From Pirellulales bacterium (GTDB lineage: Bacteria > Planctomycetota > Planctomycetia > Pirellulales > UBA1268), in assembly GCA_044236455.1 (NCBI GenBank), contig JBIIGJ010000001.1, positions 19,888 through 83,887 of the forward strand: a stretch of 64,000 bases of DNA, given 5' to 3'. The notes below the pieces were generated by a model that did not search any database, was not told where the DNA came from, and was given only the letters and a program-made list of their open reading frames with translations. The translations under genes were made by a program, and so were the position numbers. This document shows, in pieces, positions 3,048-43,757 of this stretch (within the stretch, counting starts at the first letter, position 1; the number at the start of each line of letters is the position of its first letter).

Positions 3048-4079
3048 ATGACCCCCGGCATCATGCCTAGCCCCCTGCGCCTGCAGCCATCCTCCGCACG
3101 AAAAGCCCTCATCTGTGGGATGGGCGGCCAGGATGGCAGCTACCTCGCAGCCCATCTGCTCGAACTCGGCTACACGGTCGTCGGCACCAGCCGCGACGCC
3201 CAGACGAGCCGCTTTGACGGGCTCACACGGCTGGGCATCCGCGATCGCGTGACGGTGGAGTCGATGTCGCTCGTCGACTTTCGCTCCACGATGCAGGTGC
3301 TCGCCCGCACGCAGCCCGACGAGGTCTACAACCTCGCCGGCCAGACCTCCGTGGGCCTCTCGTTCAACCAGCCCGTGGAGACGTTCGAGAGCATCGTCAT
3401 CGGCACGGTGAATCTGCTCGAGGCGATCCGGATGCTCGGCCGGCCGATCCGGCTCTACAACGCCGGCAGCTCCGAGATGTTTGGCAATACCGGCGACCAG
3501 CCGGCCGGCGAGACCACTGTGCTGCGGCCCTGCAGCCCCTATGGCATCGCCAAGGCGACCTCCTTCTGGCAGATCGCCCAGTATCGACAGGCCTACAAAA
3601 TAGAAGCCTGCACCGGCATCCTCTTCAACCACGAAAGCCCGCTGCGGCCGGAGCGGTTCGTGACGCAGAAGATCGTGGCGGGCGCCTGCCGCGTGGCCGC
3701 GGGCGAACAGGATGTGCTCAGCCTCGGCGACCTCTCCATCCGCCGCGACTGGGGCTGGGCGCCGGAGTATGTCGTGGCCATGCACCGCATGCTGCAACTC
3801 GACACGCTCGAAGACTTCGTGATCGCCACCGGCCAGACGACGAGCCTCGAGGACTTCGTCCGCGAGGTGTTCGCCAGCCTCGGCCTCGACTGGCGGAAGC
3901 ACGTCGTCCGCGATCCCGCGCTCACGCGGCCGAGCGAGATCCTCTCGGGACGCGCCGACACGTCGCACGCTACGGCCCGGCTGGGCTGGACCGCCTGCTC
4001 CCACATGAAGGACGTCGCCCGCATGATGGTCGAGGCGCGGCTCGCGTCACAGGCTCCGGCTGTCCGTCGCGCGGCGTGA
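3048..4079 (+). CDS. gmd: GDP-mannose 4,6-dehydratase
   Basis: 'KALICGMGGQDGSYLAAHLLELGY', 'NLAGQTSVGLSF' and 'SPYGIAKA..' match the GMD / extended-SDR signature (GxxGQDGSYL, YxxxK). Confidence 0.9.
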   Translation: MTPGIMPSPLRLQPSSARKALICGMGGQDGSYLAAHLLELGYTVVGTSRDAQTSRFDGLTRLGIRDRVTVESMSLVDFRSTMQVLARTQPDEVYNLAGQTSVGLSFNQPVETFESIVIGTVNLLEAIRMLGRPIRLYNAGSSEMFGNTGDQPAGETTVLRPCSPYGIAKATSFWQIAQYRQAYKIEACTGILFNHESPLRPERFVTQKIVAGACRVAAGEQDVLSLGDLSIRRDWGWAPEYVVAMHRMLQLDTLEDFVIATGQTTSLEDFVREVFASLGLDWRKHVVRDPALTRPSEILSGRADTSHATARLGWTACSHMKDVARMMVEARLASQAPAVRRAA

Positions 4080-5639: not shown

Positions 5640-5833
5640 GCCTCGGTTCTAATCCCGATTGGAGGCCCGTACAAACAACCGCGACGCTTCGGACCCCATG
5701 CTCTTGGCCCGCAGAGCAGAAACGAGCAAGCCGGACATCGCGGCGGGGTGCCTCCCCCCGTGATGTCCGGCCTGTGGTCTCGTTTCGGACCTGGGTTCCG
5801 GACGCGCCGGAACAAGGTCTGGCAGAACCTCGA

Positions 5834-17919: not shown

Positions 17920-19950
17920 ATGGGATCAGCACGCCGCAACGACACGACGAATAATGGCTCCACGGGCTCGCTTGCCATGACAACACCCGCAGCTCCCCAC
18001 ACGCCACGCCCGCAGGCCATCCGCTCGCTGCCGATCAACGAGCTGATCGCCGTGGGGGCGATTGTGGCCCTGGCCGCCTGGGCCTTGATCACCTGGTCGG
18101 GCCGCGGCGGAGAGCCGGTGTCGCTGGGGCCGATCGATCCCGGCCGCTGGTTTCCCGGCCGTGGTCTCACGCTGGCCGATGTGCCGCTGGTGTTGATGCT
18201 CGTGGCGGGGGGCGTGCCGTTGGTCTGGGATCTGCTTGCCAAGCTGTTCGCGGGCACGTTTGGCTCCGATCTGCTGGCCGGCCTGTCGATCATCACGAGC
18301 GTCCTGCTGGGGGAATACCTCGCCGGCGTGCTCGTCGTGCTGATGCTCTCTGGTGGCGAGGCGCTCGAATCACGTGCCATCAGCCGGGCCGGCGACGTGC
18401 TCAATGCCCTGGCCCGGCGCATGCCGACACTGGCCCATCGCAAGACGGCCGCCGGTCTGACCGACATCGTACTGGCGGAGGTTGCCGTGGGTGACCTGAT
18501 CGTCGTGCTGCCACACGAGATCTGTCCGGTGGACGGCACGGTGGTGTCGGGCCGCGGGTCGATGGACGAGAGCTACCTCACCGGCGAGCCCTACCGCATG
18601 GCGAAGGTTCCTGGGTCGGCCGTGCTCTCGGGTGCGATCAACGGCCAGGCCGCGCTCGAGATTCGCACCGACCGCGTGGCCGGAGACAGCCGCTACGCCA
18701 AGATCATGGACGTGCTTCGCTCGAGCGAGCAGCAACGGCCGCAGCTGCGGCGGATGGCCGACATGCTCGGCGCGTTCTACACGCCGCTGGCCGTGGCGAT
18801 CGCCGCCGCCGCCTGGTTTTTCAGCGGCAGCGCCACGCGGTTTCTCGCGGTGCTCGTGGTGGCCACCCCCTGCCCGCTGCTGATCGCGATCCCGGTGGCG
18901 ATCATCGGCGCCGTGTCACTGGCGGCCAAGCGTGGCATCGTGATCCGCGATCCGGCCATCCTGGAACGGCTCGACACCTGTCGCACCGCCATCTTCGACA
19001 AGACGGGCACGCTCACCTACGGCGAGCCCAGCCTCACCGACGTCGTGCTCCTCGGCGCGTTGACCCGGGCCGATGTGCTGTCGCTGGCCGCCAGCCTCGA
19101 AACCTATTCGAAGCATCCACTCTCCGCGGCCGTGGTGCAGGCCGCCGCGGAGGAATCGCTCCGCCTGCTCGAGGTCGAGGCCTTGGCCGAAAAGCCCGGG
19201 CAGGGTCTCGTCGGCCAGGTGAAACATTTGAACGGCGCCGCGCGTGTGCACGACGTGGTGATCACCAGCCGTCAGAAGCTTCCGAACGTCGATGCTGCCG
19301 GAGTCGCGAAGCTGCCGCCGGTGGCTGGCGGTCTCGAATGCGTGGTCGTGGTGGACGGCAAGACCGAGGCCCTGCTCCGCTTCCGCGACTCGCCGCGGGC
19401 CGACGGCCGGCCGTTCGTCAGCCATTTGAAGCCCGCCCACGGACTGTCCCGCGTGATGCTCGTCTCCGGCGACCGCGAGAGCGAGGTGCGGTGGCTCGCC
19501 GACCTGGTCGGCATCACCGAGGTGCATGCCGGCATCCAGCCGGAGGGCAAGCTCAGGATCGTGGAGCAGGCGACGGCCGAGGCGCCGACCCTGTTTGTCG
19601 GCGACGGGATCAACGATGCGCCGGCGCTCGCGGCGGCGACCGTCGGCATCGCCATGGGTGCGGCCAGCGACGTGACCAGCGAGGCGGCCGGCGCCGTGGT
19701 GATGGATACAGCCCTCGAACGCATCGACGAACTGCTGCACATCGGCCGACGGCTGCGGTCGATCGCGCTGCAAAGCGCCGTGGGGGGCATGGCGGCCAGC
19801 GTGATTGGCATGGGCTTTGCCGCGGCGGGGTTCCTCTCGCCCGCGATGGGCGCGCTCCTCCAGGAGGCGATCGACGTGGTGGCGGTGCTCAACGCCCTCC
19901 GCGTCTCGTGGAACCCGGGAGCACTGACCGACTACCGCGACCGCGTCTGA
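17920..19950 (+). CDS. heavy-metal P1B-type ATPase with TPCP transmembrane motif and no N-terminal metal-binding domain
   Basis: 'DKTGTLT', 'TGEP', '[10 protein letters not shown]', '[11 protein letters not shown]' and '[13 protein letters not shown]'. The ATG directly follows the miaE TGA. Confidence 0.9.
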
Positions 19951-30525: not shown

Positions 30526-31017
30526 CTACAGGTTCATCCCGAGGAAGCCGCCGCTGGCGTCGCTGGCGGCCTGCTCGCGGGCCAGACGTTCCTGGGCGCG
30601 GGCCAGGTCGCCGGCGGCGATGTAGCGGTCAAACTCCGTCTCCATGGCGTGCTTGACCGTGAGCGAGAGCCACTGCACCGCCGGCTGCGTGAGCCACTCG
30701 CAGGTTTCCTTGTCGAGCCGGATCGCGAGATCGCTGCCGACCGTCTTCGTGTCGGCCTCATCGGTGATCACCGTTCCCTCAACCGAGAAACGCACCCACC
30801 CCAGGTCGGGATCGTTTGTAAACTGAAACGTGCAGGAGCCGTTCGTGAGATAGTAGGTGTTGCGGGTGCCGTGCTGGCTGACAGCCCGTTGGACCCGCTC
30901 CAGCCGGCTGCGGTAGGCCGGCGAGGCGTCGGGCGGAATGGCAACCTGCCGCACGCTCCGCAAGGGAGTGCAGTCGAAACTGATCGCCACGATCGGACGG
31001 GATAGTTGATCGCTCAT
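30526..31017 (-). CDS. conserved hypothetical protein
   Basis: 163-aa ORF with coding-like composition and no recognisable motif. Its start codon overlaps the apbE start on the opposite strand (CATG at 31015-31018). Confidence 0.55.
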   Translation of the reverse strand: MSDQLSRPIVAISFDCTPLRSVRQVAIPPDASPAYRSRLERVQRAVSQHGTRNTYYLTNGSCTFQFTNDPDLGWVRFSVEGTVITDEADTKTVGSDLAIRLDKETCEWLTQPAVQWLSLTVKHAMETEFDRYIAAGDLARAQERLAREQAASDASGGFLGMNL

Positions 31018-32101
31018 GATGAGAAGAGTCTATCGCGCATGGGCCGCCACGGCAGCCCTGCTGAGTGTCTTGGCGGCGGGCTGTGGGCCTCCAGCCACGC
31101 CGTCCGCACCGGCCGGCGTGAGCCAGACGCAGCGGGTGAGCCAGACGCAGCGGCTCATGGGAGTGCCGTGGACGATCACGGTTCATGCGGAAACGGCAGC
31201 GGTCGGCGACGCGGCGATTGCCGCTGGGTTTGCCGAGGTGGCACGACTCGAGCGGATTCTCTCCGACTACGATCCCGAGAGCGAACTCTCCCGGCTGTCG
31301 GCACAGGCACCAACGACGGTTCCCGAACCGGTGAGCGACGACCTGTGGCGCGTGCTGACGCGAGCCGTCGAGATTCGTGATGCCACAGGCGGTGCGTTTG
31401 ACCCCACGGTCGGACCGCTGACGAGCCTGTGGCGTCAGGCCCGCCGTTCAGGCCGATTGCCGGTGCCGGACAAGCTGGCCATTGCCCGTGAGTCGGTCGG
31501 GCCGGAGACCCTGCGGCTGGTGCCCGACAACCGCGGGGTGGTGCTTGCGCGGCCCGCCATGCGGCTGGATCTGGGGGGTATTGGCATGGGCTATGCGGTC
31601 GATCGGGTGATCGAAGTGCTGCGGCGTCGCGGTATCGCGGCGGCGATGGTCGATGCCTCCGGCGATATCGCAGTCACGGCGGCCCCACCCGGCACCGCGG
31701 GCTGGAAGATCGCCGTGGCGCCGCTGCGGCCAACGGATGCTGGCGACGGCGACGCCTCGGGCGATCCAGGCGAGCACCTGCTCCTCTCCCATGCTGCGGT
31801 GACGACCTCCGGCGATGCCTTTCAGGCAGTGGAGATCGACGGCCGACGATACAGCCACATCGTCGACCCGCGGACCGGCCTCGGCGTGGCGGGGCCGGCA
31901 GCGGTCACGGTGGTGGCGCCGGATTGCACGACGGCCGACGCGCTGGCCACGGCCGCCAGTGTCCTGGGGCCGGAGCAGGCTGCCGCGGTCATCGCCGGCA
32001 CGCCGGGCTGCGCCGCCAGGTTCATGTCGATGGCCGATGGTCAGCTGCAGTATTCCCGGACTCCCCGCTGGCCTTCCCAGGCTTCCCAGAGTGCCCCCTA
32101 A
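31016..32101 (+). CDS. apbE: FAD:protein FMN transferase (ApbE family lipoprotein)
   Basis: Lipobox 'LAAGC'. ApbE motifs are 'FDPTVGPL', 'LDLGGIGMGYAVD', 'GDIA' and 'TSGD..Q..EIDG.RYSHI.DPRTG'. Confidence 0.85.
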   Translation: MMRRVYRAWAATAALLSVLAAGCGPPATPSAPAGVSQTQRVSQTQRLMGVPWTITVHAETAAVGDAAIAAGFAEVARLERILSDYDPESELSRLSAQAPTTVPEPVSDDLWRVLTRAVEIRDATGGAFDPTVGPLTSLWRQARRSGRLPVPDKLAIARESVGPETLRLVPDNRGVVLARPAMRLDLGGIGMGYAVDRVIEVLRRRGIAAAMVDASGDIAVTAAPPGTAGWKIAVAPLRPTDAGDGDASGDPGEHLLLSHAAVTTSGDAFQAVEIDGRRYSHIVDPRTGLGVAGPAAVTVVAPDCTTADALATAASVLGPEQAAAVIAGTPGCAARFMSMADGQLQYSRTPRWPSQASQSAP

Positions 32102-32348
32102 AGCCCCGAGTCCATCGTCGGGGTAGGTGCGGGTTGCGCAGGATGTGACGGTTCTCCCAAGTTTGCGGGCGAGGCGGCCGATATCTCTGGAGCCGTCGCT
32201 GCGCCTTGGCGTACGTGTTGCGGGCACGGAGTCGGGGGGCACCGTGCCGGGCAGGGCTGCAGCAAGAGCTGTGGCCACACCCCTTGGGCGCAGCGGCGGC
32301 GATTTGAACGACGACCGAGCCAGACACCACCGCCTTGCGGAAGCCCCC

Positions 32349-34493
32349 GTGCCGCGAACTGCCAGACAACTCTGGGTTGCCCTGACGAGCCTCTCGCTCC
32401 TCGCGGGAGGCTGTGCGCCCAAGCAGCCGTTCTACTTCTTTGAGGACGGCGACCTGTCGCACTACGTGGGCGCCGTCCAGAAGCTCGAATATCCCGACAG
32501 CTGCGAGCAGCCGCTCGACGAGTCGGCCGGCACGACTGAGCCGCTCACGCTCTCCAACGCCCGCATCGACCAGATCTGGGAACTGTCCCTGGAGGAAGCG
32601 ATCCGTACGTCGCTGGAAAACGGCAAGGTGCTCCGCAACCTGGGCGGCCGGTTCCAGAGCTTCGGCGGGCCCCGCCCGCAGACCGGCGAACCGGCCGTTT
32701 CGCTTCTCACGGCCCCTTCGGCCACGCCCACGATCTACGACCCGGCGATTGCCGAGACCGATCCTTTCCGCGGTGTGGAAAGCGCGCTGTCGCTGTTCGA
32801 CGCGCAGCTCTCCAGTTCGCTCACATGGGAGCGGCAGAACCGTCCGCAGAACGTAGGTGGCATCATCGGAACGTCGGTGTTCCAGCAGCAGTTCCTCGGC
32901 GACACCGGCAACTGGACGAGCGGCATCCAGAAGCGGACGGCGACTGGTGCCACCGTGGGCTTTGCCAATACGACGCTCTACGACAACAACAACTCGCCGA
33001 TTCGCCAAGATGGAGTGCCCTCGACCTTCACGACGAACTACGACTTCACGCTGAGCCAGCCGCTGCTTCAGGGAGCCGGTGTGACCTACAACCGGATCGC
33101 CGGCCCCGACCCATTTGACAACATCTACGGCCGGCCCCTGTTTCGCGGCGTGTTGCTGGCCCGGATCAACGCCGACATCTCGCTGGCGGAGTTCGAGGCG
33201 GGTGTCCGCAATCTCGTCAGCGACACGGAGCAGTCGTACTGGGAGCTCTATTTCGCCTACCGCAACCTGGAGGCCCGCAAGGCCGGTCGCGATAGCTCGC
33301 TGGAGGCCTGGAGGAAGGTGCACGCCCTCTACGTGGAGCAGTCGCGCGGTGGTGAGGCCGACAAGGAGGCCCAGGCCCGCGAGCAGTATTTCTTCTTCCG
33401 CAGCGAGGTCGAGCAGGCGCTTACCGACGTCTACCGCTGCGAGAATCGAGTGCGATTCATGATGGGTATCAGTGCCAGCGATGGCCGGCTGATCCGCCCC
33501 TCCGACGAGCCGACCACCGCCAGAATTTCCTTCGATTGGCAGCAGTCGCTGGTCGAGACCCTGTCGCGGTCGGCTGAACTCCGCAGGCAGAAGTGGGTCA
33601 TCAAGCAGAAAGAACTGGAGCTGACCGCGGCCAAGAACTTGATCCTGCCCCGGCTCGACCTCGTGGGCCGCTGGCGGTTCCTCGGCATGGGTCAAGAGCT
33701 GATCAACCAGAATTACGCGGCGTACAACGCCAACGGCCGGGATCCTCTCAACGGCACCGATGCCTACTCGACCCTCCTGAGTGGCCAGTTCCAAGAATGG
33801 CAGGCGGGCGGACAGTTCCTCATGCCGCTCGGCTTCCGCCGCGAACTGGCCACGGTCAGGAACCACCAGTTGCAGCTGGCCCGCGAGCGGGCCCGGCTGC
33901 AGGACGAGGAGCTGGAAGCCTCGCACGCGCTGGTCGAGGCGGTGCGGAACATCGACACGAATTTCGCGCTCTCCCAGACGAACTTCAACCGCCGCGTCGC
34001 CGCGGAACGGCAGGTGGAGGCGGTGCAGGCAGCCTATGACGCCGGCACCGTGACGCTCGACCAGCTGCTCGATGCCCAGCGGCGGCGGGCCGAGGCGGAG
34101 AGCTCCTACGCCCGCGCGATCGTCGACTACACCCGCTCCATCTCGCAGCTTCATTTCCGCAAGGGCTCGTTGCTCGAATACAACGGCGTCTTCCTTGCCG
34201 AGGGCCCGTGGCCCGGCAAGGCCTACTTCGATGCCCACCGCCGGGCGCGGCAGCGGGACGCCAGCCTCTACCTCGACTACGGCCATTCCCGTCCCGGCGT
34301 CTTCAGCCGTGGGACGATCACGCAGAACTTCGAGTCGATCGGGGCTGATTCCCCGGTGACGCAGCTCCCGCCACGGGATCCTGCCACGAAGGAAGACTAC
34401 GACGATCAGAACGCCCCGCCGGCCTCGGGCACGACGCCGCGACAGGATGCACGTCCCGGTGTTCCCGAACTGCTGCCGTCACCACGGGGGTGA
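32349..34493 (+). CDS. TolC-family outer membrane efflux protein (oversized, about 715 aa)
   Basis: Two OEP repeats with coiled-coil segments ('LSLEEAIRTSLENG', 'AEFEAGVRNLVSDTEQSYWELYFAYRNLEA', 'AYDAGTVTLDQLLDAQRR'). GTG 32349 gives the lipoprotein signal 'LSLLAGGC'. Confidence 0.8.
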   Translation: MPRTARQLWVALTSLSLLAGGCAPKQPFYFFEDGDLSHYVGAVQKLEYPDSCEQPLDESAGTTEPLTLSNARIDQIWELSLEEAIRTSLENGKVLRNLGGRFQSFGGPRPQTGEPAVSLLTAPSATPTIYDPAIAETDPFRGVESALSLFDAQLSSSLTWERQNRPQNVGGIIGTSVFQQQFLGDTGNWTSGIQKRTATGATVGFANTTLYDNNNSPIRQDGVPSTFTTNYDFTLSQPLLQGAGVTYNRIAGPDPFDNIYGRPLFRGVLLARINADISLAEFEAGVRNLVSDTEQSYWELYFAYRNLEARKAGRDSSLEAWRKVHALYVEQSRGGEADKEAQAREQYFFFRSEVEQALTDVYRCENRVRFMMGISASDGRLIRPSDEPTTARISFDWQQSLVETLSRSAELRRQKWVIKQKELELTAAKNLILPRLDLVGRWRFLGMGQELINQNYAAYNANGRDPLNGTDAYSTLLSGQFQEWQAGGQFLMPLGFRRELATVRNHQLQLARERARLQDEELEASHALVEAVRNIDTNFALSQTNFNRRVAAERQVEAVQAAYDAGTVTLDQLLDAQRRRAEAESSYARAIVDYTRSISQLHFRKGSLLEYNGVFLAEGPWPGKAYFDAHRRARQRDASLYLDYGHSRPGVFSRGTITQNFESIGADSPVTQLPPRDPATKEDYDDQNAPPASGTTPRQDARPGVPELLPSPRG

Positions 34494-34608: not shown

Positions 34609-35784
34609 TCAGCGGGCAGGCGGCAGGGCCGCGGCCTCCAGGGCCTGCTGCAACAGGGCGGGATTGTGCGTGCGGATCCGCGCCAGGGCCTGGGACGCCG
34701 CGGGGAGCGGGCAGGCGGTGAGATAGCCGGCCACGGCGCGGCGGATGATCGGATCATCCGCACCAAACGTGTCCCAGAGCCGGGCCACGGCCGCCAGCTC
34801 GTCCCAGGCCTGATAGCGGGCCAGATCAACGGTGGCATCGGCCGCCACGACCGGGCTGGCCAGCAAGGCGGCGGTGGCGCCGATGATCCTTCGGCGCGGG
34901 ATCGTGTCGGCCAGACTTTCCGAGGCGAACCGCAGCGCGGCCAACAGATGCCGCTGATCGAGGGGCCGGGCATTGCGGCCGAACAACCCGCGGTCGTGCA
35001 GGAAATCTAGACCGCGTTCCCCCTCCGCCACGAGCAGACCCGCCAACAGGCCATCGAATCCGGCCCGAAAATCGTCGGCGGGAGCCGCGATGGCCTGCTG
35101 GAGGGCATCGAGACATGTCTGCGAGTCGGCGGGATCTTGTGTGGCGGCGGCGACGCCCAGCAGCAGACCGTAGAGCCCGCGCCGGCGGGCGTCGATCCCC
35201 GGCTCGCTCACCCAGGCCCGCAGCCGGGCGGGGTCGAGCGCATCGGCTGCCGCGCGGACGGTTGCGAACGGCGCCAGGCCAAACTCGGTGAAAGCGTCGG
35301 CGGCGATCGTGGCATTGGGGTGTTCCAGTCGGCCGGCGAACCAACGCAGCCGCTCAGCCGCCGGCCGGTCGATGGCCGGCGCGGCCGCCACGTATCCCAG
35401 CACTATTTCGTCGGCTGCGACCGCCGACCATGTGCGGCGCGTGGTCGCTCCGGCCGCTGCCTCCGTGCCGAAGAGCACGGCCGTACCCGCCACCGGGCCG
35501 ACGACCCGGGCCGGCACGCGGGCTCCAGCAACGGCCGCATCGGCGTTGCCGCGGAGCAGCTGATCGAGGCGAAACTGCTGCGAGCGAAATCCCTGCGCGT
35601 CCGCGGAGTCCCCGCCTTCCGCCTCGCCGACGGCCACGACCGTCGCCTCGTCGCGCCGCTGCGAGAGCGACTGACCGACCGTCCCGCAGAACGGGCAGGC
35701 CTCCGCCGGTGTGGCGGCCCACGGCGTGAGCGCGAGGATGATCAGGCAGCCGGCGTACGCCGCGGCCTCGCGCGGAATGGTCAT
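34609..35784 (-). CDS. secreted protein of unknown family, predicted mature N-terminus CPFC (paralog A)
   Basis: Signal peptide 'MTIPREAAAYAGCLIILALTPWAATPAEA|CPFCG'. Alignable over about 300 aa to 39915-41519, ending '..YLTACPLPAASQALARI'. Its ATG overlaps the AIM24 stop (TGATG). Confidence 0.8.
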   Translation of the reverse strand: MTIPREAAAYAGCLIILALTPWAATPAEACPFCGTVGQSLSQRRDEATVVAVGEAEGGDSADAQGFRSQQFRLDQLLRGNADAAVAGARVPARVVGPVAGTAVLFGTEAAAGATTRRTWSAVAADEIVLGYVAAAPAIDRPAAERLRWFAGRLEHPNATIAADAFTEFGLAPFATVRAAADALDPARLRAWVSEPGIDARRRGLYGLLLGVAAATQDPADSQTCLDALQQAIAAPADDFRAGFDGLLAGLLVAEGERGLDFLHDRGLFGRNARPLDQRHLLAALRFASESLADTIPRRRIIGATAALLASPVVAADATVDLARYQAWDELAAVARLWDTFGADDPIIRRAVAGYLTACPLPAASQALARIRTHNPALLQQALEAAALPPAR

Positions 35785-36467
35785 CACTCGGAATCCCATC
35801 CCCCGGCAGCCATTCTTGCGCGTTCCTTCTGCATCCGGGCCCGCCAGTAGGGAACCGTGCACAAGAGCAGCTTGCCCGTCCCCTCGTAGACGTAGGCGAG
35901 TTTCTGGCCCGACAGCCAGTAGCTGACGAAGGACTTGGCAGGTCGCTTGACCCGCATGGAAATCCCCTGCGTCCGCGCGATCACGAAGGGGCCGTCGGTG
36001 ACCAGGCGGTCGTTTTCGAGTTCCACCTCGTGGACCGGGCCATCGACCGAGAGCACGACCTGTCCGTTGCCCTTGAGAGCCGTCTTGTACCAGAACAGGC
36101 CCTCACCGGCACGGAAGGCGGTGAGCATCCGCTCGCGGTGCACCGAGAGCTTGACCTTGCCGTCGCTCGCCCAGAAGCACCGCGTGTCGAGCACCCAGCG
36201 CTCCCCCGGCGCCACCTTCATCAGGTGGTAGCCGCCGAGGCTGGAATCGAGGTAGACGCTGCCGGTGCCGCTGTAGCGGGGCCGCAGCAGTGACTCGTCT
36301 GAAAAGAGTGATACCCACCAGGCCTTGAGCGTGGGCCAGGGCACGTCCATCGTGATCGCGCCGTGCATATGGTTGAGGGCGCCCCGCTCGGTCCGCACGT
36401 CGTCGCCTTCGAGGGCGACCTTCACCCACCGCATCCCCTCGGAATGTTCGACCTTAAATGTCGCCAT
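35784..36467 (-). CDS. AIM24 family protein (TIGR00266/DUF124)
   Basis: 'MATFKVEHSEGMRWVKVAL..DDVRTERGALNHMHG' and 'GEGLFWYKTALKGNGQVVLS' have the AIM24 beta-rich pattern. Start at ATG 36467 inside track ORF 35784..36944. Confidence 0.8.
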   Translation of the reverse strand: MATFKVEHSEGMRWVKVALEGDDVRTERGALNHMHGAITMDVPWPTLKAWWVSLFSDESLLRPRYSGTGSVYLDSSLGGYHLMKVAPGERWVLDTRCFWASDGKVKLSVHRERMLTAFRAGEGLFWYKTALKGNGQVVLSVDGPVHEVELENDRLVTDGPFVIARTQGISMRVKRPAKSFVSYWLSGQKLAYVYEGTGKLLLCTVPYWRARMQKERARMAAGGWDSE

Positions 36468-37782
36468 CGATGGAGACCTCCGGGCCGCGGGTGATGCCCC
36501 CCTTTGTCCAGTCGCAACTCCACCCCGGGAAGGCGATCTGCGGATAGGGATCGGGTTCGATCGGGGCGTCCGACTGGTGCACGATGTCGAACTGCCGGTC
36601 GGTGCGAATTCGGCCGAGCCTGAAAAAGCGGGTGCAGTGCTGGGTCTTCGGATCCAGCCGCACGGTGCCCCCCGGCCCCTCGAACTCGAGCCCTTCGCGC
36701 ATCGCCGCCCGCACGGCCTGAGTGTCGAGTGAACCGGCCCGTTCCACGGCCTCCCGCCAGAGATGCACCAGCCCCCACTGAGGCTCCAGCGGATCGCCCG
36801 TGACGCGGTCGTGGCCAAACTCGCGGCGGAAATCGGCCACCCAGCGGCGGTTTGTCTCGGTCGGCAGGCTCTGGAAATAACACGATGCCGCCAGATGCCC
36901 GGCGACGTTCTCGGGCAGCAGATTCCGAAGTTCGTCCTCGGCAATGCTCGTCGACACCACCGGCAGCTTCTCGGGATCGACTCTCGCGGCCGCCAACGCG
37001 TTGAACCAGCCGATGTTGCTGTCGCCGTTGATCGTGCTGAGCACGCACTCGGCCCCTGACGCGCGGATCAGGTTGACCACCGGCTCGAAATCCTTGTGCC
37101 CGAGCGGGAGATACATCTCGCCGGCCGGCCGCATGCCTTTCGTGGTCAGGTATTTCTTGGCCACGAAATTCGCCGTCCGTGGAAAGACGTAGTCGGAGCC
37201 CAACAGGAAGATCTTTTTCTTGCCCCCGCCCGCGGGGCTTGCCAGCCAATCGATGACCGGCAGAACCTGCTGGTTGGGCACCATGCCGCCGTACACCACG
37301 TGGGAGGACGACTCGTTGCCCTCGTACTGCACCGGGTAGAAGAGCAGGCGGTCGCGCTCTTCGAAGAGCGGCACGACTGCCTTGCGGCTCGAACTCGTCC
37401 AGCAGCCAAACACGGCCGCAGCGCCCCAGTCCAGCAGTTCGCCGGCCCGTTTCGGGTAGAGGTCGGTCCGCGACTTAGGGTCAGGCCCCCAGACCTCGAT
37501 CTGCCGGCCGAGCAGTCCCCCGGTGGCGTTGATCTGTTCGAACGCAAACAGTTCCACGTCGCGGAGCGACGTTTCGCTGATGGCCATGGTGCCGGTCTGC
37601 GAGTGGAGCAGGCCGACCCGGATCGGCTTCCGGCCGGCCGGTACGCCCGTCGGCATGCAGCCGACGAACACAAAGGGGGCAAGACCGCGTGCGGCGGCCA
37701 GCGTGGCCGCGGCACCGGCGTGCCTGCCGAAATTCCTTCGGGAAATGCGGCGAGTGAGTCCCGTCACCTGTCGTTGCCCCAT
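36454..37782 (-). CDS. periplasmic urea/short-chain-amide binding protein homolog (UrtA/AmiC/FmdD family), Tat signal
   Basis: 'SRRNFGRHAGAAATLAAA' twin-arginine leader. Family motifs are 'GTMAISETSL', 'FGCWTSSSRKAVVPLFE', 'FYPVQYEGNE', 'GSDYVFPRTAN', 'NGDSN' and 'EPDPYP'. Confidence 0.85.
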   Translation of the reverse strand: MGQRQVTGLTRRISRRNFGRHAGAAATLAAARGLAPFVFVGCMPTGVPAGRKPIRVGLLHSQTGTMAISETSLRDVELFAFEQINATGGLLGRQIEVWGPDPKSRTDLYPKRAGELLDWGAAAVFGCWTSSSRKAVVPLFEERDRLLFYPVQYEGNESSSHVVYGGMVPNQQVLPVIDWLASPAGGGKKKIFLLGSDYVFPRTANFVAKKYLTTKGMRPAGEMYLPLGHKDFEPVVNLIRASGAECVLSTINGDSNIGWFNALAAARVDPEKLPVVSTSIAEDELRNLLPENVAGHLAASCYFQSLPTETNRRWVADFRREFGHDRVTGDPLEPQWGLVHLWREAVERAGSLDTQAVRAAMREGLEFEGPGGTVRLDPKTQHCTRFFRLGRIRTDRQFDIVHQSDAPIEPDPYPQIAFPGWSCDWTKGGITRGPEVSIDGDI

Positions 37783-37785
37783 CGC

Positions 37786-38577
37786 CTACTCCTCGACCAT
37801 GTGCTTGTAGAGCGCCTCGAACGGCTCGGGAGTGACGCTCACCTCGCCCCGAAACGGATGGTCCATAGCGGCGATCAGAAAAATCATCGTGCCGAGATAG
37901 GCCGCGAGCAAGCCGCCGAGCAGCAGGTGGGTGATGAACCTCATGTCGAAGAGCCAAACCATGGCGATGTTGATGACCGCTCCCAGGATGACGACGTACC
38001 ACATCACCGGCGGGATCGCCGTGTTGACGGAAAACAGCCGCATGCGACGGTGCTCGAGGAAGGTGTTGAACTGCCGCAGCGCCTCGGCGTGCAGGATTTC
38101 CTGCGCCGGTGTCGCCGGCTGGAAGTCGAGGAGCTTCTCCTGGAAGGCTTGCACGCGGATCGAACCATCGACCGGCACGATCCCCTGCCGCTGCAGCGGC
38201 CAGGCATACTTGATCACATACCGCGTGTAGTCGCGGAGGATCCAGCGGAGATTCTGGCCATAGGGATCGGGGTAGCGGGAGACGTCTTCGTAGAGCGCCG
38301 ACAGCGCCGCGGCCTCGTGGGTGACGTTCGCGCTTGTGTCGGAGGCATTCTGGTAGGCGGTGACCGCGATCAGGCCGAGGAGCAGGCCGTAGAACACGCA
38401 GAAGCACGAGAGCACGTAGCCCACGATGTCGTTGGCACCGCGGGTGTTCTTGACGAACTGCCGCAGGATGGGCCGTAGAAAGATCAGCCCCGCCCAGTAG
38501 AAGCCGACGAACACCGCGATCATCAGGATCGCGAAGGTTTCGGTCGGCAGATCGTAGACCCAGTAAAAGTTCTGCAT
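37786..38577 (-). CDS. DUF4239 domain membrane protein
   Basis: TM helices lie at both ends, with a central 'EAAALSALYEDVSRYP..' region typical of DUF4239. Start at ATG 38577 (MQNFYWVY). Confidence 0.75.
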   Translation of the reverse strand: MQNFYWVYDLPTETFAILMIAVFVGFYWAGLIFLRPILRQFVKNTRGANDIVGYVLSCFCVFYGLLLGLIAVTAYQNASDTSANVTHEAAALSALYEDVSRYPDPYGQNLRWILRDYTRYVIKYAWPLQRQGIVPVDGSIRVQAFQEKLLDFQPATPAQEILHAEALRQFNTFLEHRRMRLFSVNTAIPPVMWYVVILGAVINIAMVWLFDMRFITHLLLGGLLAAYLGTMIFLIAAMDHPFRGEVSVTPEPFEALYKHMVEE

Positions 38578-38658
38578 GGTTCCGTGCCGGGGCGACGCCG
38601 CGGCGGCCGCCGCCAGCGTGGGACCGATGCTACCAACGGGATTTTGCCGCTGCACGTG

Positions 38659-39216
38659 TCACTCGACGGCCTCTCCGTCCAGGGCGTAGATCGCCAGGTG
38701 CCGGCCGTCCGGCCCCCGCAGTTCCTCCACCCGGAAGGTACCGGTCACGGCCACCGGCCGGATCGAAAAAGAGGCTGTTTTTCCGGGGATCATGCGGACC
38801 ACAACGCAGTCGTGGAGCAGGGCGCCGGGCCCGAAACAGCACTCCATGTTGTCGCGGACGAGCACGAACTGGGTCAGGCCGGTCTGCTGGAAGCTCGGCA
38901 GGATGTAGCCGCGGATCCGCACGCGGCTGGTTTCGAGGGCGGTCACTCGCTTCGGCAGCAGGTCACGGGAGAACGGGTCCCCCTTCTTGAGGTCGAGTTT
39001 GATGTCATCAAACGAGATGTCGCGGAGGGCGGCCGGAGACGCCTTCGCGGCCGTGGCTGGTGGCGCCGGCTGGGGCTCGGCGGCAGGCGTGCCGGCAGGC
39101 GACGGCCGTACCTCGGCAGGAGTTCCGCACCCGACCAAGCAGCAGGCCATCACGACGAGGCAGAACCGTTGCTGGCGGTGCGCAGGCAAAACCGCGACGC
39201 TATCTCGCAAAGGCAT
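38659..39216 (-). CDS. DUF3299-like lipoprotein
   Basis: Lipobox 'CCLVGC'. The C-terminal 'VRIRGYILPSFQQTGLTQFVLVRDNMECCFGPG' resembles the DUF3299 'GF.vP....EFLLVP..gaC.H.P' core. Confidence 0.7.
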   Translation of the reverse strand: MPLRDSVAVLPAHRQQRFCLVVMACCLVGCGTPAEVRPSPAGTPAAEPQPAPPATAAKASPAALRDISFDDIKLDLKKGDPFSRDLLPKRVTALETSRVRIRGYILPSFQQTGLTQFVLVRDNMECCFGPGALLHDCVVVRMIPGKTASFSIRPVAVTGTFRVEELRGPDGRHLAIYALDGEAVE

Positions 39217-39901
39217 CCTCGAGGTGGTAGAGCACGCCGCCATCCAGGCCGGGCGCGCCCATGGGGCGGATGACGAACCTGCCAGCGATCTTGATAAGCC
39301 GGGGCGAGAAATCGATTCCGGTGGGATAGCCTGGGTCCTTCAACTGCACGAGCACTCGATCGGTGATCTTGGGATTGCCACCGAAGCAGCAGTCGCCCTG
39401 GTCGCGCACGAGCAGGAATTGCGTGATGCCCCGTTGCTGCTTGCCCGGATACATGTATCCCTTCAGCAACACGTTGCGGCCGTCCATCGCGCGGGCGGTG
39501 TCGGGCACCGTGCCGGCCGGATCGCCAAGCAGTGGCTGGAGCATGCCGTAGTTGAGCCGTTCGTAGCCTGCCGGCAGTTCCGCGATGTAGGCCCGCGAGA
39601 GGGTCACGAGGCCGCCGACGAGCGACAGCGATGAGACCACGATCGCCCCGATCGCCAGCGGACGCCCGGTGAACTCGTCGGCCCGCTGGGAAATCGTGCG
39701 GTAGGCCAGGCCGCCGAGCACCATGCCCAGGATCGGCACGGCGGCCAGCGACCAGTCGAGAAATGCCAGAGGCGACAGGAGAGCCAACACTGCGGCGGCG
39801 ATCGCGGTGCCGGCAACGGCGCGGTAGCGGCCTTCCACGTCCTGACCATCGGTGCGGTCGGGCGGTTCCTGTCCGGCGGTATCGAAGAGACCTGCTGGCA
39901 T
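39200..39901 (-). CDS. membrane-anchored DUF3299-like protein (paralog of 38659-39216)
   Basis: Two N-terminal TM helices, then 'VLLKGYMYPGKQQRGITQFLLVRDQGDCCFGGNP', which aligns with the neighbouring gene. Confidence 0.7.
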   Translation of the reverse strand: MPAGLFDTAGQEPPDRTDGQDVEGRYRAVAGTAIAAAVLALLSPLAFLDWSLAAVPILGMVLGGLAYRTISQRADEFTGRPLAIGAIVVSSLSLVGGLVTLSRAYIAELPAGYERLNYGMLQPLLGDPAGTVPDTARAMDGRNVLLKGYMYPGKQQRGITQFLLVRDQGDCCFGGNPKITDRVLVQLKDPGYPTGIDFSPRLIKIAGRFVIRPMGAPGLDGGVLYHLEDAFAR

Positions 39902-39914: not shown

Positions 39915-41519
39915 TTAGCGTACGGACGGGCCCGCCGCGCCTGCCCGCAGCCTGCTCCGCGAGAAGAGTGCGATCAGCAGCACGATCACCGCCCAGATGG
40001 CCCACTTCACGACGGTGGAGGAGCGGGCTGCCGGTGTGGGGGAAGCGGCCGCGGGACGGGCCGTCGTCGGCCTCGAGGGGTCGATGCCGGGGGCATCGTC
40101 GGTGGCCTCTTCGTCCGCCAATACCGCCGGAATCCGGGCTGCGATGGCCGCCTCGTCTTCCACGGCTTCCGTTCCACCGCCGGCCGGCGTCGATGCTGCG
40201 TTGGGCGAGGTCGCGGTTCCGGGGCTGGAAGCCGTCGTCCGGGCCATCGTCGGGTCACCCGGATCGCCATCGGATGACCCGCTTGAGTCGCCCCCGGTCG
40301 TCGTGCCGCCGGGCTTGGCCCCAATCGCCCCTGCAAAGGCAGCCAGCGTGGCGGCGCGGCGGACCGCCTCCGGATCGATCTTTTCAAGTCTGGCGATGGC
40401 CTCGGCCGCCTGCGGCAGCGGGCAGGCCCGCAGGTAGTTCACGATCGGTTCACGGACGAAGATGTTGTCGGCCTCGGCCTTCTCGAAGAGTTCCACGAGC
40501 CGGTCGATCGCGGACCAGTCCTGCCAGCGGGCGAGATCCGCGATCACCAGATCGGCCAGCTTTGGCTCCTCCAACAGCAGCCGCAGCGACTTAAGCACGC
40601 GGTCCTTCGGCACGCTCTCCGACTCCTCGCCGAGAAACCGCAGCGCCATGACCGCGGCGTAGGTTTCGGTGAATGGGATATCGCGGCCGCGCCGGTTCAG
40701 GAACAGCTCGTCGACCAGGTCGAGCCCTTCAGGACCGCGCAGCGTCACATAGCAGGCGATCAGGGCATCCAGGCCGCTACGGACTTCCGCCTTCTCCGGT
40801 CCGAGGCCCCGGTTGGCAAGGATGCCGCCGATGCGGTCGGCGTCGGTTTTTGTGCCGCAGGCACCGAGCATGGTGGCATAGAGCCGCCGCCGGTTGGCCT
40901 GTACCTTGGGATTCTCGATCCACTCCAGCAGCTGCGTGGGATCCATCCGGTCGGCGAGGCCGCGGACGTCGGCATAAGGCGCAACGGCGAACTCGTCATA
41001 CGCATCGCGGGCCAGCGTCTCATCGGGGTCTTCCAGGTGCCGTTGGAAGAACGCCAGGCGGTCGGGCCCTTTGTCCGGAAGCGAGGACAGCTTCTTGAGA
41101 TAGTCGACAGCCCGCTCGCTCACCGGGATCGGGCTCGACCAGACGAGCTTCGGCGGCTCGATGCCCATCAGCAGGAAGAGCGTGCCCACCGGCTTCTCCT
41201 CCAGGAGAATCGTCTCGATGGGCGTGCCGTCCGCCCCGGCGTGCCCGGCCTCCGCGATGAGGTCGGCGCCCTTGAGCACCTCGACGACGGCGAACTTCCC
41301 CTTCGGCAACGGACCCTCGGCGCGGGGCGAGAGGGCTCCCGCCGGCGGAGGTTCCACGAGCCGGACGATCGCGGCCACCTGGCTCTGGGCGATCTCCTGC
41401 GCGAAGGTGAGCGACACGGCCGAACAGAACGGACAGGCCGATGCCGGTCGGGGCTGGCCGACGAGCAAGCCCAAGCCGAGCATGAGCAGGATCACACGGT
41501 CGACACACGAGGTTCTCAT
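39915..41519 (-). CDS. secreted/anchored protein of unknown family, predicted mature N-terminus CPFC (paralog B) with low-complexity linker and C-terminal TM helix
   Basis: 'MRTSCVDRVILLMLGLGLLVGQPRPASA|CPFCS', then a conserved body ending '..YLRACPLPQAAEAIARL', a Gly/Ser/Thr/Pro/Asp linker, and 'VVKWAIWAVIVLLIALF'. Start at ATG 41519. Confidence 0.8.
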   Translation of the reverse strand: MRTSCVDRVILLMLGLGLLVGQPRPASACPFCSAVSLTFAQEIAQSQVAAIVRLVEPPPAGALSPRAEGPLPKGKFAVVEVLKGADLIAEAGHAGADGTPIETILLEEKPVGTLFLLMGIEPPKLVWSSPIPVSERAVDYLKKLSSLPDKGPDRLAFFQRHLEDPDETLARDAYDEFAVAPYADVRGLADRMDPTQLLEWIENPKVQANRRRLYATMLGACGTKTDADRIGGILANRGLGPEKAEVRSGLDALIACYVTLRGPEGLDLVDELFLNRRGRDIPFTETYAAVMALRFLGEESESVPKDRVLKSLRLLLEEPKLADLVIADLARWQDWSAIDRLVELFEKAEADNIFVREPIVNYLRACPLPQAAEAIARLEKIDPEAVRRAATLAAFAGAIGAKPGGTTTGGDSSGSSDGDPGDPTMARTTASSPGTATSPNAASTPAGGGTEAVEDEAAIAARIPAVLADEEATDDAPGIDPSRPTTARPAAASPTPAARSSTVVKWAIWAVIVLLIALFSRSRLRAGAAGPSVR

Positions 41520-41683: not shown

Positions 41684-43009
41684 TCACGACGACAGCCACT
41701 TGGCGACGTCGGTGCGGTAGGCGGCCAGGGCGGGAAGAAGGGCCGCCAGGATGGCCAGCACCACCAGGAACGGCACAAGGAGCAGTTCCGCCCCCGGCGC
41801 CGCCGAGAAGATGCTCGCCGAGACGCCGGCGTTGGTCGTGATCAGCGGGGCGATGGCCCCCACGAGCAGGTGCCCGAGCAACCACCCGGCCAGCCCGCCG
41901 CCGACGGCCAGCAGCACCGCCTCGATGAGCACGACCGCCAACACGTGCGACCTTCTGGCGCCCAGCGCCCGCATGATCGCGACGTCGCGGCTGCGCTCCA
42001 GCGACGAGCCCACCATGCTCACCAGGATGCCGATGGCGGAGACGAGCACCACCAGTGCCGTGATCAACAGCAGCAGCAGTTCCAGCGGCCGCACGAAAAG
42101 GTCGAGCAGTTGACGGATCTCGGCGATCGGCAGGGCGGCCTGTCCGTCACGGCCCTCGTTGATCGCGGTCCGCAGACCCATGGCCGTCAATTCCGGAGGC
42201 AATCCCGGCAAGGAGGCCGTGTCGAGCAACAGCGCAGTCACCTCCCGCTGCGCGAAGGGAAGCGGTGTGGGCGTGTTGCCTCCGTCCGATGGCGGTTCCT
42301 CTTTCCGCTCGTCGCTCTCCGCTCCCTCCACCGGCTTCGCGTGGCCGTCCTGCAGATAAAAGCCTTCCATGTTGACGAACACGCCGCGGTCGACGGGCGT
42401 GTCGGTCCGCGCGAGGATGCCGGTCACCATGAAGGGGTCGTGCACCTTGCCGTCGTCGGCGCCGTGCGTGGGCGCGAACGGATCGCCCACCTTGAGCCCG
42501 AGTGTGGCGGCCACCGTCGCTCCCAGCACGCCGCCGAAAAACTCGTCGTTACGAAAGTTCCGCCCGGCTGCGAACGCAAACGGCCGCCCGTCGCCGACCG
42601 TGAGCCGGTCGAAATAGGCCGTGTTCGTGCCGATCACGCGAAACCCGCGGAAGTAGTCCCCCATGCAGATTGGCACGGCGGTCTTCGTGCTGGCGGCGAA
42701 CGTGCCGTCCACGCCATCGGGCCGCTCGGCCGCGGGCAGAAACTGCTGGTAGAAGTCCCAGGAAATGTTCTCGATCGGCTTGCTGATCAGGTAGACGCTG
42801 TTGAGCACCAGCTGCAGCGGGCTCCCCTTCGCGCCGACGATCATGTTGTAGCCCAGGCCGGAGCCCGACTCAAAAGCCTGCTTCACGATGCCGCCGGTCA
42901 CGAGTGTGGCCACCACCAGCGCGACGCCGAGTGCCAGCGACAAAGCGGTGAGCAGGCTGGTGAGCAGCCGTTGGCGGATGTTCCGCCAGGCGATGCCGAG
43001 GAGGGTCAT
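41684..43009 (-). CDS. ABC transporter permease, FtsX/MacB type
   Basis: 'IAWRNIRQRLLTSLLTALSLALGVALV', a large periplasmic loop, and a C-terminal FtsX domain ('RSRDVAIMRALGARRSHV'). 4 TM helices. Confidence 0.9.
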   Translation of the reverse strand: MTLLGIAWRNIRQRLLTSLLTALSLALGVALVVATLVTGGIVKQAFESGSGLGYNMIVGAKGSPLQLVLNSVYLISKPIENISWDFYQQFLPAAERPDGVDGTFAASTKTAVPICMGDYFRGFRVIGTNTAYFDRLTVGDGRPFAFAAGRNFRNDEFFGGVLGATVAATLGLKVGDPFAPTHGADDGKVHDPFMVTGILARTDTPVDRGVFVNMEGFYLQDGHAKPVEGAESDERKEEPPSDGGNTPTPLPFAQREVTALLLDTASLPGLPPELTAMGLRTAINEGRDGQAALPIAEIRQLLDLFVRPLELLLLLITALVVLVSAIGILVSMVGSSLERSRDVAIMRALGARRSHVLAVVLIEAVLLAVGGGLAGWLLGHLLVGAIAPLITTNAGVSASIFSAAPGAELLLVPFLVVLAILAALLPALAAYRTDVAKWLSS

Positions 43010-43695
43010 GGGTGATGCACCGTGGCTGCGCGGTTGAAGTCTTCGAGCCGCACGCGGCGCGGGAACTGCCCGGCCACGTCCGCGGCGTGCGTCACGATCA
43101 GGAGTGCGACGCCCTGCTCTGCACAGGTGTTTCGCAAGAGGTCGATCACCTGCTGTTGATGGGCGGGATCGATGCTCGCCGTTGGCTCATCGGCGAGCAC
43201 CGCCCGGGGCCTGTTGGCGAGGGCCCGGGCCACGGCCACCCGCTGTTGCTGGCCCACGCTCAGCTCAGCCGGCTTGTGAGCGAGCCTGTGCCCGAGCCCC
43301 ACCGCGTCGAGCAGTCGCACGGCCCGGTCGCGGTCGGGGCGGCCCGATCCGAACGACATGGCCACGAGCACGTTCTCGAGCGCCGTGAAACCGGGCAGCA
43401 GATTGAACTGCTGGAAGACGAGGCCGAGTTTGTCGGCCCGCATGCGGTCGCGGCGGGCCTCGTCGAGCCGGGCGATGTCGATGCCGTCGACGATCACGCG
43501 GCCGGCATCGGGCCGCATGATCCCGGAGATGACGTTGAGCAGCGTCGACTTCCCGGAGCCGCTGCGGCCCTCCAGGGCGCAGTGCTCGGCGTCGGCGAGT
43601 TGGAACGCGGCGATGTCGAGGATCGGCACCTGCTCGCCGCCCGGCATCGTGAACGACTTGCGGACGTCGTGGAGTTCGAGAACGGGTGTAGCCAT
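43006..43695 (-). CDS. ABC transporter ATP-binding protein (MacB/LolD-like)
   Basis: Walker A 'GRSGSGKST', signature 'LSVGQQQR' and Walker B 'VLADEPT'. Its stop overlaps the permease start (ATGA). Confidence 0.9.
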   Translation of the reverse strand: MATPVLELHDVRKSFTMPGGEQVPILDIAAFQLADAEHCALEGRSGSGKSTLLNVISGIMRPDAGRVIVDGIDIARLDEARRDRMRADKLGLVFQQFNLLPGFTALENVLVAMSFGSGRPDRDRAVRLLDAVGLGHRLAHKPAELSVGQQQRVAVARALANRPRAVLADEPTASIDPAHQQQVIDLLRNTCAEQGVALLIVTHAADVAGQFPRRVRLEDFNRAATVHHP

Positions 43696-43757
43696 GGACA
43701 CAATCGTAGCCGTTGGGGGCGGTCGGTGGTCAAAAACCGATGTTTTCGCGGGCGGAT

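Follow-up and report, generated by a model that had tools for sequence, protein, structure and literature searches.

What could be the use of a secreted protein whose mature form is predicted to begin with Cys-Pro-Phe-Cys (CPFC)? This question is raised by a 64,000-nucleotide stretch of DNA from a Pirellulales bacterium (contig JBIIGJ010000001.1, positions 19,888 to 83,887), hereafter the window, which encodes two such proteins, here called A and B. A previous inspection of the letters (the sequence-only reading) had singled them out as paralogues of no recognised family. What is new here is a large family of CPFC proteins within a known, poorly understood kind of system, in which a MacB-type ABC transporter is accompanied by DUF3299 proteins. 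As a tentative answer to the question, we propose that A and B may serve such a machine as periplasmic carriers of metals.

The CPFC family and its predicted mature N-terminus

Both open reading frames are real and paralogous, as the sequence-only reading had claimed: B and A share 31% identity over 368 amino acids (BLASTP, E 7e-47), with the three blocks quoted in that reading and both CPFC motifs in register. Each has an N-terminus with a brief charged segment and a hydrophobic core, then an AxA tripeptide (AEA in A, ASA in B) and, immediately after it, CPFC. The start codons given here are supported by the homologues, which have a median of 29 residues ahead of the cysteine, and by a database protein of 391 amino acids identical to A. 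The same median led us to reject, as the B gene, a frame of 656 amino acids taken from a mechanical list of open reading frames. The linker and the C-terminal anchor that were said to distinguish B from the soluble A do exist, although the linker measures about 108 residues instead of about 120 and is rich in Ala, Thr, Gly, Pro and Ser.

Database searches matched at least 1934 proteins with B and at least 553 with A, all of them unnamed or labelled “hypothetical”; where the organism is named, the matches are from Planctomycetia or Pirellulales assemblies. A profile of A and B, run against 1.84 billion cluster representatives, retrieved 2556 clusters (50% identity) at E <= 0.001 and 960 at E <= 1e-30, and relatives occur in 370 stretches when one genome per species is scanned; all of the best 80 belong to Planctomycetota assemblies. 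A and B are covered by no Pfam or NCBIfam model, the sole Pfam signal being HEAT_2 at 19.9 bits against a cut-off of 27.7; the NCBIfam search gave only low-complexity noise (TafF, for example), and a PDB sequence search with the whole of B found no match. In the literature on CPFC at a mature N-terminus and on planctomycete MacB/HEAT systems we found no description of these proteins. With no characterised domain above threshold, the previous failure to recognise a family stands, and by sequence A and B represent a large planctomycete family for which no earlier description was found.

Some loci with a B homologue 73-90% identical to that of the window come from assemblies labelled “Candidatus Kuenenia” (L004, L010, L011, L017, L021, L040, L044, L049, L050, L065 and L069) and stand beside near-identical loci labelled Pirellulales; these labels look like automatic misassignments.

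The conservation of the motif, which the sequence-only reading had put forward for checking, turned out to be nearly absolute. In an alignment of A and B with the 150 best representatives of the 50%-identity clusters, its four positions are kept in 145, 144, 144 and 145 of 146 representatives, respectively. Among closer homologues CPFC occurs in 236 of 240, and the remaining four are three truncated sequences and one CPFF. The same family alignment has Ala before the motif in 115 of 139 sequences, Arg154 and Asp172 invariant, and Trp127, Glu176, Asp251, Arg294, Asp328, Arg331 and Trp335 conserved above 90%. The other cysteine noticed previously, in a C-terminal ACPLP, is present as described, but it is less general than was thought, being kept in 120 of 146 representatives (~82%).

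The cleavage site follows the motif. Ala occupies position -1 in 109 of 143 members and position -3 in 91, the -3/-1 rule is satisfied in 117, and position -2 is frequently Arg, Glu or Trp. Cleavage by signal peptidase I leaving Cys as residue 1 is thus predicted for the family at the very AxA site that had been proposed for A and B. We rejected the alternative of an N-terminal lipoprotein cysteine: of the 143 members, only 5 have a strict lipobox, [LVI][ASTVI][GAS]C, and 34 fit a PROSITE-like pattern. That the site is conserved precisely at the cysteine argues for the importance of a free Cys1, or of a free N-terminus.

Two architectures, a short soluble one (A-like) and a long one with a low-complexity tail and a C-terminal helix (B-like), recur in all lineages seen, which dates the A/B duplication as old. 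In the B-like proteins basic residues follow the C-terminal hydrophobic helix. No His-, Cys- or Met-rich tails were found among B-type proteins, and the only conserved motif of the B linker is clade-specific.

Predicted fold of A and B

A first AlphaFold model, built from 14 sequences, was mediocre, and a second one from 142 diverse sequences reached a mean pLDDT of 93.9 and a pTM of 0.87. It starts with the helix of the signal peptide and continues with the coil that bears CPFC, its least confident part (pLDDT ~60-83); this arm is probably flexible. There follow a helix (39-45) and strands at 48-56, 73-83, 101-104, 114-120 and 131-133, so that residues 29-134 are modelled as a five-stranded OB-fold barrel of NTR/TIMP-like topology, whose only other invariant residue besides CPFC is Trp127. 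Residues 135-393 form an unbroken series of paired antiparallel helices. The body had been described as all-helical, which does not hold for this beta-rich barrel; the likeness of the body to HEAT/ARM proteins is borne out by helices 135-393 and by the mostly solenoid matches described below. Also in agreement with the sequence-only reading, no strand precedes CPFC in the model, as one would in a thioredoxin fold.

Foldseek was run with the whole model. The 50 matches listed are all HEAT/ARM-type solenoids except for two agrin NtA and three aminopeptidase N structures, with a best E of ~1e-3. The HEAT/ARM part matched only generic HEAT/ARM proteins in the PDB, and A and B are HEAT/ARM proteins in fold only. 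The two agrin NtA matches (1pxu and 1jb3; 124-130 columns, TM 0.51-0.53 relative to the target, probability 1.0, E 0.026-0.045) concern a laminin-binding domain that the title of 1jb3 describes as structurally related to N-TIMP-1.

The order of elements in N-TIMP is an N-terminal segment, a helix, five strands and a helix, and the same order is found in the model of the CPFC family; in both, Cys comes first after the signal peptide, by prediction in our case. There are also clear differences. TIMPs have CxC where these proteins have CPFC, and the CPFC proteins are bacterial, periplasmic and fused to a HEAT solenoid. TIMP disulfides join Cys1 to Cys70, Cys3 to Cys99 and Cys13 to Cys124, and none of the three partners exists here, where CPFC holds the sole conserved cysteines of the barrel. 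At the sequence level, Pfam TIMP (PF00965) is touched by 2 of 36 isolated N-domains (best E 0.019), without any significant profile match to PF00965 or to NTR (PF01759). An hhalign comparison with TIMP-1/2/3 (sequences verified against the PDB) gave E 0.0083 at a probability of 4.8%, and it aligns in register the helix and strands A (ADVVVLAKLV/SDVVIRAKVV), B (FxIxxVLKG/YEIKxxKMFKG) and D (FLLxG/YLIAG). The N-domain is accordingly modelled as NTR/TIMP-like in fold, a resemblance with weak but consistent sequence support; for membership of the family it lacks the disulfides and a significant profile match. Homology to the DUF3299 domain of the neighbouring proteins, which is OB-like too, was considered and is not supported (hhalign E 0.42).

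Membership of the thioredoxin/glutaredoxin family was rejected on fold and profile searches. No thioredoxin-fold structure is among the 50 Foldseek matches listed, and whole A and B match none of Pfam Thioredoxin, Glutaredoxin, Redoxin and DSBA; two of the 36 isolated N-domains match Glutaredoxin weakly, at E 0.043 or worse. The PDB profile search retrieved only a 29-residue stretch of Mpt53 containing its CPFC helix (E 0.074), and the arm consensus CPFCxAVxPTLxQ does resemble Mpt53 CPFCNAEAPSLSQ. Glutaredoxin, DsbA and Mpt53 hence share with the family the four-residue motif and a similar following stretch (CPFCxAxxPxLxQ), whereas the predicted fold differs and the preceding strand is missing. 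Nor are A and B carriers of the heavy-metal-associated (HMA) type, such as MerP, CopZ and Atx1, as their modelled fold is another and neither they nor the isolated N-domains have HMA or CusF matches in Pfam.

The conserved operon and its other proteins

From 43695 down to 34609, nine minus-strand genes abut or overlap, the first encoding an ABC ATPase and the last A (Table 1). Synteny was mapped in 80 genome loci, 5 contigs with divergent members and 80 metagenome loci, and counts are given in that order. B is immediately preceded by the FtsX permease gene in 46/55, 5/5 and 14/14 loci and has DUF3299a as the next gene in 64/64, 4/5 and 25/26; A comes after DUF3299b at a distance of no more than 5 kb in 40/40, 1/1 and 20/26. 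The conserved unit is ABC-FtsX-B-DUF3299a-DUF3299b-A. The sequence-only reading had taken the genes bracketed by A and B for the core; this needs correction, as two core genes precede B and a cassette is inserted before A. The six-gene unit can be traced to ~35-48% identity (L081, L086, L089, L090, L093-L097, L110 and L119 are examples), and the marine lineages L082-L085 have its first five genes with no adjacent A. No membrane-fusion protein of the MacA type was found in any version of the operon examined. It is quite likely that A and B are functional parts of the ABC machine.

Table 1. Features of the window around the operon, in order of position
Feature	Positions	Strand	Basis or remark
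TolC-like outer-membrane efflux protein, convergent with A	32127-34493	+	Pfam OEP, E 1.5e-15
A, soluble CPFC-family member, 391 amino acids	34609-35784	-	<=5 kb downstream of DUF3299b in most loci
A, C-terminal Cys358	34711-34713	-	
A, CPFC motif	35686-35697	-	
A, predicted signal peptide	35698-35784	-	sequence MTIPREAAAYAGCLIILALTPWAATPAEA, then CPFC
AIM24	35785-36470	-	Pfam
Inserted cassette, outside the conserved unit	35787-38655	-	Pfam
Peripla_BP_5 binding protein (urea/amide-type)	36454-37782	-	Pfam
Bestrophin-like gene	37786-38655	-	Pfam
DUF3299b, DUF3299-like protein	38659-39243	-	Pfam DUF3299, E 7.8e-4 and 20.0 bits (cut-off 22 bits)
DUF3299b, Cys-Cys in ECCFGPGA	38836-38841	-	
DUF3299b, canonical lipobox LVGC	39127-39138	-	
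DUF3299a, DUF4190-type membrane anchor and DUF3299-like domain	39200-39901	-	Pfam DUF4190, E 6.6e-6, and DUF3299, E 0.011, both below cut-off
DUF3299a, Cys-Cys in LVRDxxxCCFG	39386-39391	-	
B, tethered CPFC-family member, 534 amino acids	39915-41519	-	translation, paralogy with A, CPFC invariance, AlphaFold model
B, C-terminal membrane helix (residues 503-520)	39960-40013	-	hydrophobic
B, low-complexity linker	40014-40337	-	
B, HEAT/ARM domain (modelled)	40338-41117	-	
B, beta-barrel domain (residues 29-134, modelled)	41118-41435	-	
B, CPFC motif	41424-41435	-	
B, predicted signal peptide	41436-41519	-	sequence MRTSCVDRVILLMLGLGLLVGQPRPASA, then CPFC
FtsX/MacB-type permease with periplasmic domain	41684-43009	-	Pfam FtsX, E 9.6e-16; MacB_PCD, E 7.2e-11
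ABC transporter ATPase, LolD/MacB-like, first operon gene	43006-43695	-	Pfam ABC_tran, E 3e-31
Conserved promoter-like region of the operon	43703-43746	-	sequence and conservation in relatives

The ATPase, whose gene is syntenic in relatives, has LolD as its best NCBIfam match, under the cut-off of that model. Cysteines recur in the other periplasmic proteins of the unit. DUF3299a has an invariant LVRDxxxCCFG, with Cys-Cys in 75 of 75 loci and in L081-L085; DUF3299b has Cys-Cys in 69 of 69 loci and the lipobox cysteine in 48 of 49, and LVRDxxxCCFG, which the two proteins share, is kept in all divergent loci as well. The window also encodes the apolipoprotein N-acyltransferase Lnt (4047-5648, minus strand), and with it the organism probably has the means to triacylate its lipoproteins, DUF3299b included.

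In the periplasmic domain of the permease, Cys115, His182, His190 and His223 are invariant among six divergent permeases aligned. Of 88 related permeases, 10 from several lineages carry inserts of 100-200 amino acids rich in His, Asp and Glu (16-24 His per 60 amino acids), a classical mark of divalent-metal binding. They sit at a single site of the periplasmic domain, FtsX residues ~227-245, where the permease of the window (equivalent ~42277-42331) has only a short acidic loop. Permeases with inserts are encoded in L081 (8442-9950), L086 (3533-5260), L090 (3486-4940), L094 (2220-3836), L095 (2626-4551), L096 (2825-4636), L110 (2670-4250) and L119 (3021-4745).

The bestrophin, Peripla_BP_5 and AIM24 genes are absent between DUF3299b and A in L048, L055, L057, L062, L126, L129, L130, L164 and all divergent operons, where A follows DUF3299b directly, and we regard them as an insertion of the window's clade. 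These genes, which are translationally coupled to their neighbours, were rejected as parts of the system because most versions of the operon lack them. The TolC-like gene is syntenic in the window's clade only, is absent in L082-L085 and has a Legionella_OMP gene in its place in L081, and its product is a possible outer-membrane partner. Next to it lie a 163-amino-acid open reading frame without a family match (30526-31017, minus strand) and a gene for an ApbE flavin transferase (31016-32101, plus strand). Neither was kept as a partner, both being syntenic only in the window's clade and absent in L081-L085 and in the divergent six-gene operons.

Some lineages have expanded or reordered the locus. 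Family members occur in tandem pairs or triplets, and triplets, or two DUF3299 genes followed by two family members, are seen in metagenome loci L156, L158, L161, L165; L128, L134, L139, L145, L147. Stand-alone A-type genes have housekeeping neighbours, which are uninformative. About 20 kb from the operon, a P-type ATPase (17920-19950, plus strand; E1-E2_ATPase and Hydrolase domains, DKTGT, and TPCP in the membrane part) may be a P1B-type metal pump, with no heavy-metal-associated domain detected in it.

Upstream of the operon, an AT-rich inverted repeat, AAAAC-N4-GTTTT (43746-43733), abuts a -35-like TTGACC (43733-43728). Its arms are kept in relatives while the N4 spacer varies, and it could be an operator. 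A -10-like TACGAT (43708-43703) ends 7 nucleotides ahead of the ATG, which suggests a nearly leaderless transcript. The 19-nucleotide spacer between the two boxes explains why a consensus promoter scan does not report them, and the scan for terminators and promoters gave nothing above chance.

Possible roles and known counterparts

The reading that we prefer, which we hold possible without calling it probable, is that A and B carry metals by means of thiolates in the periplasm and in this way serve the MacB-type ABC machine. It draws on their membership of the operon, on the likeness of this operon to the Zrg operons compared below, on the His-rich inserts, on the invariant Cys motifs of every periplasmic partner and on the features of the arm. 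B would be held on the inner membrane by its long flexible linker and its C-terminal helix, and A would be free in the periplasm. The mature arm would offer a free amino group and the thiols of Cys1 and Cys4, perhaps together with Phe3 and Trp127, beside the OB barrel, and would bind a thiol-loving transition metal (Zn, Cu(I), Co or Ni) or a metal chelate. Ligand exchange would pass the metal to or from the Cys-Cys of the DUF3299 proteins and the periplasmic Cys/His site of the permease, with the HEAT/ARM solenoid as the docking surface for the partner, and ATP hydrolysis would act mechanically on the periplasmic parts, in the manner of other MacB-type systems. The occurrence of a tethered and a free form in both families suggests a path across the periplasm, on which B and DUF3299a would stand at the inner membrane and A and DUF3299b, a lipoprotein, farther out, and which may extend to the neighbouring TolC-like protein in the window's clade. 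We infer metal binding, relay and cleavage at AxA/Cys alike, and the direction of transport could be import or export.

Several points weigh against carriers of this kind. A and B are not His-rich themselves, even in loci with a His-rich permease, and the operon lies among housekeeping genes and not in a resistance island. At the operon there is no gene for a metal-responsive regulator and no recognisable Zur or Fur box, no planctomycete Zur motif being at hand for comparison. CPxC motifs, with their Pro at position 2, are found more typically in redox enzymes such as DsbA, glutaredoxin and Mpt53 than among carriers of metals, and the CPFC helix of Mpt53 is the arm's only sequence match in the PDB. 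Thiols in the oxidising periplasm depend on a reductant, which the operon does not encode. MacB-type transporters are not known for moving ions across the inner membrane. The DUF3299 assignments lie under Pfam cut-offs, and PA4066, the Pseudomonas protein of this family, is without evident zinc binding (PMC11481552).

In a redox relay, the CPFC dithiol would exchange disulfides with a partner selected by the HEAT solenoid, either the Cys-Cys of the DUF3299 proteins or a substrate in the envelope. The classical active sites of glutaredoxin, DsbA and Mpt53 read CPFC, CPYC or CPHC, and the resemblance of the arm to Mpt53 (E 0.074), the two weak Glutaredoxin matches among 36 N-domains and a JGI record that labels one member “thiol-disulfide isomerase/thioredoxin” all point in this direction, as do the invariant cysteines of all periplasmic partners. 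We nevertheless consider such a relay unlikely, since the model lacks a thioredoxin fold and a strand before CxxC, with no such fold among the 50 Foldseek matches listed and no significant Pfam match, the operon encodes neither an electron donor (DsbD/CcdA) nor an acceptor, and the MacB-type ATPase and the His-rich inserts would be left without a role. The invariance of Cys-Cys in both DUF3299 proteins, which parallels that of CPFC and suggests a shared chemistry, speaks against a purely structural motif, that is, a Cys1-Cys4 disulfide loop stiffening the N-terminus of a scaffold or adaptor that would replace MacA and bridge the ABC machine to the outer membrane. HEAT/ARM solenoids are typical scaffolds, no version of the operon has a membrane-fusion protein, and the ~108-residue linker of B could span the periplasm; but the arm is modelled as flexible and not packed, and the near-absolute conservation of CPFC and of the cleavage site at <=50% identity exceeds what a structural staple usually needs, so that we find this explanation hardly likely.

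The NTR/TIMP-like topology opens a different way of using Cys1, whose amino end, together with its thiol, could enter the active-site zinc of a periplasmic hydrolase, with the ABC machine switching the inhibition mechanically. TIMPs act so on metalloproteinases, and FtsEX mechanically controls EnvC and amidases. The agrin NtA matches, the N-TIMP order of elements, the in-register hhalign alignment (E 0.008, against 0.42 for the DUF3299 control), the two N-domains that match Pfam TIMP (E 0.019) and the position of Cys1 after the signal peptide argue for a TIMP-like regulator. Yet the hhalign probability was as low as stated above, no profile match exceeds its threshold and the barrel lacks all three partners of the TIMP disulfides. 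The operon has no conserved gene for a protease or hydrolase, OB folds have arisen repeatedly by convergence, and neither the His-rich inserts nor the Cys-Cys proteins would be explained; we judge such a regulator quite improbable.

It is very improbable, finally, that A, and perhaps B, is a cargo acylated or otherwise modified at Cys1 and moved outward by the MacB-type machine and the TolC-like protein, in the manner of Lol or Aat/dispersin. The closeness of the ATPase to LolD, the weak resemblance of the permease to LolC/E and MacB, the TolC-like gene next to A in the window's clade, an Lnt (CN_hydrolase and LNT_N domains) encoded in the window and the chemical aptness of an N-terminal 1,2-aminothiol for acyl transfer are consistent with it. 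A MacB-type system is also reported to export a protein that carries its acyl group on the residue exposed by signal peptidase (PMC7943197). Against it, a lipobox is found in only 5 of 143 members whereas DUF3299b has a canonical LVGC, the operon encodes no acyltransferase, B is anchored in the membrane and not exported, and the outer-membrane gene is absent in marine lineages. A folded HEAT protein of ~40 kDa is, moreover, too large for a TolC-type channel.

Returning to the metal carriers, a bolder form of this proposal, which we regard as rather improbable, takes the N-domain for a bacterial NTR/TIMP module, either truly related or independently reinvented, that uses Cys1 and Cys4 as a metal ligand. 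The family would then consist of periplasmic metal carriers of a new class, or else of regulators that act on a zinc enzyme as TIMPs do, and in both cases a thiolate relay with the Cys-Cys DUF3299 proteins would couple it to a MacB-type machine. If true, this would give DUF3299 its first function, and provide the first mechanism for metal handling by transporters of the Zrg/PA4064-4066 type, which are not known to pump ions across the inner membrane in the usual way. A mature Cys-Pro-Phe-Cys N-terminus on an OB barrel is unusual, and could represent either a novel type of metal site or, in bacteria, an echo of how TIMPs bind zinc, in a family of thousands of members that has no annotation.

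Among known metal carriers, the likeness lies in the way of working only. In mercury handling, MerP hands the metal over from a CxxC to the vicinal Cys-Cys of MerT, and CusF is an OB-fold periplasmic carrier with an essential Trp that feeds an efflux pump. MerP, Atx1 and CopZ, however, have the ferredoxin-like HMA fold with MxCxxC in its first loop, whereas the CPFC family has neither and carries its motif at the extreme N-terminus, and the Met/His site of CusF has no equivalent in this family.

The closest counterparts are the Zrg system (ZrgABCDE) of Vibrio and PA4063-4066 of Pseudomonas aeruginosa. DUF3299-linked MacB-type systems are induced by zinc starvation in both genera. ZrgBCE and PA4064-4066 are repressed by Zur and induced upon zinc starvation (PMC9817125), and these systems act in the homeostasis of Zn and Co (PMC9817125, PMC11481552). 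The Pseudomonas transporter has been modelled as a MacB-type exporter, for which the export of cobalt-pyochelin was proposed (PMC11481552), and PA4066 corresponds to the PDB structure 4hsp, an OB-like fold without an assigned function (PMC8561739). A phmmer comparison aligns DUF3299b with 4hsp over 107 residues (E 0.002), and the second cysteine of the DUF3299 Cys-Cys aligns with the single cysteine of PA4066, which has Ala-Cys (ACIH) where the planctomycete proteins have Cys-Cys.

Both kinds of operon have a separate ATPase and an FtsX/MacB_PCD permease above the Pfam cut-offs, with a DUF3299 protein alongside (below the cut-off in the planctomycete case), no MacA-type adaptor, periplasmic accessory proteins and signs of metal handling. 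They differ in regulation, which depends on Zur there while no Zur box is recognised at the planctomycete operon, and in the DUF3299 proteins, present in planctomycetes as two copies, one membrane-anchored and one a lipoprotein. They also differ in the accessory proteins, as two CPFC/OB/HEAT proteins stand in the planctomycete operon instead of DUF2796 (ZrgA/PA4063) and DUF2607 (ZrgD); no DUF2796 match was found in the operon of the window or in L081-L085. If the carriers we propose exist, A and B would take the place of the His-rich ZrgA/PA4063. Judged by gene order and matches, the planctomycete operon is a variant or counterpart of the Zrg/PA4063-4066 kind, with ZrgA replaced and DUF3299 weakly matched, and it makes the chemistry of such systems easier to probe, as it offers a Cys motif in every periplasmic partner and a permease that often has a His-rich insert.

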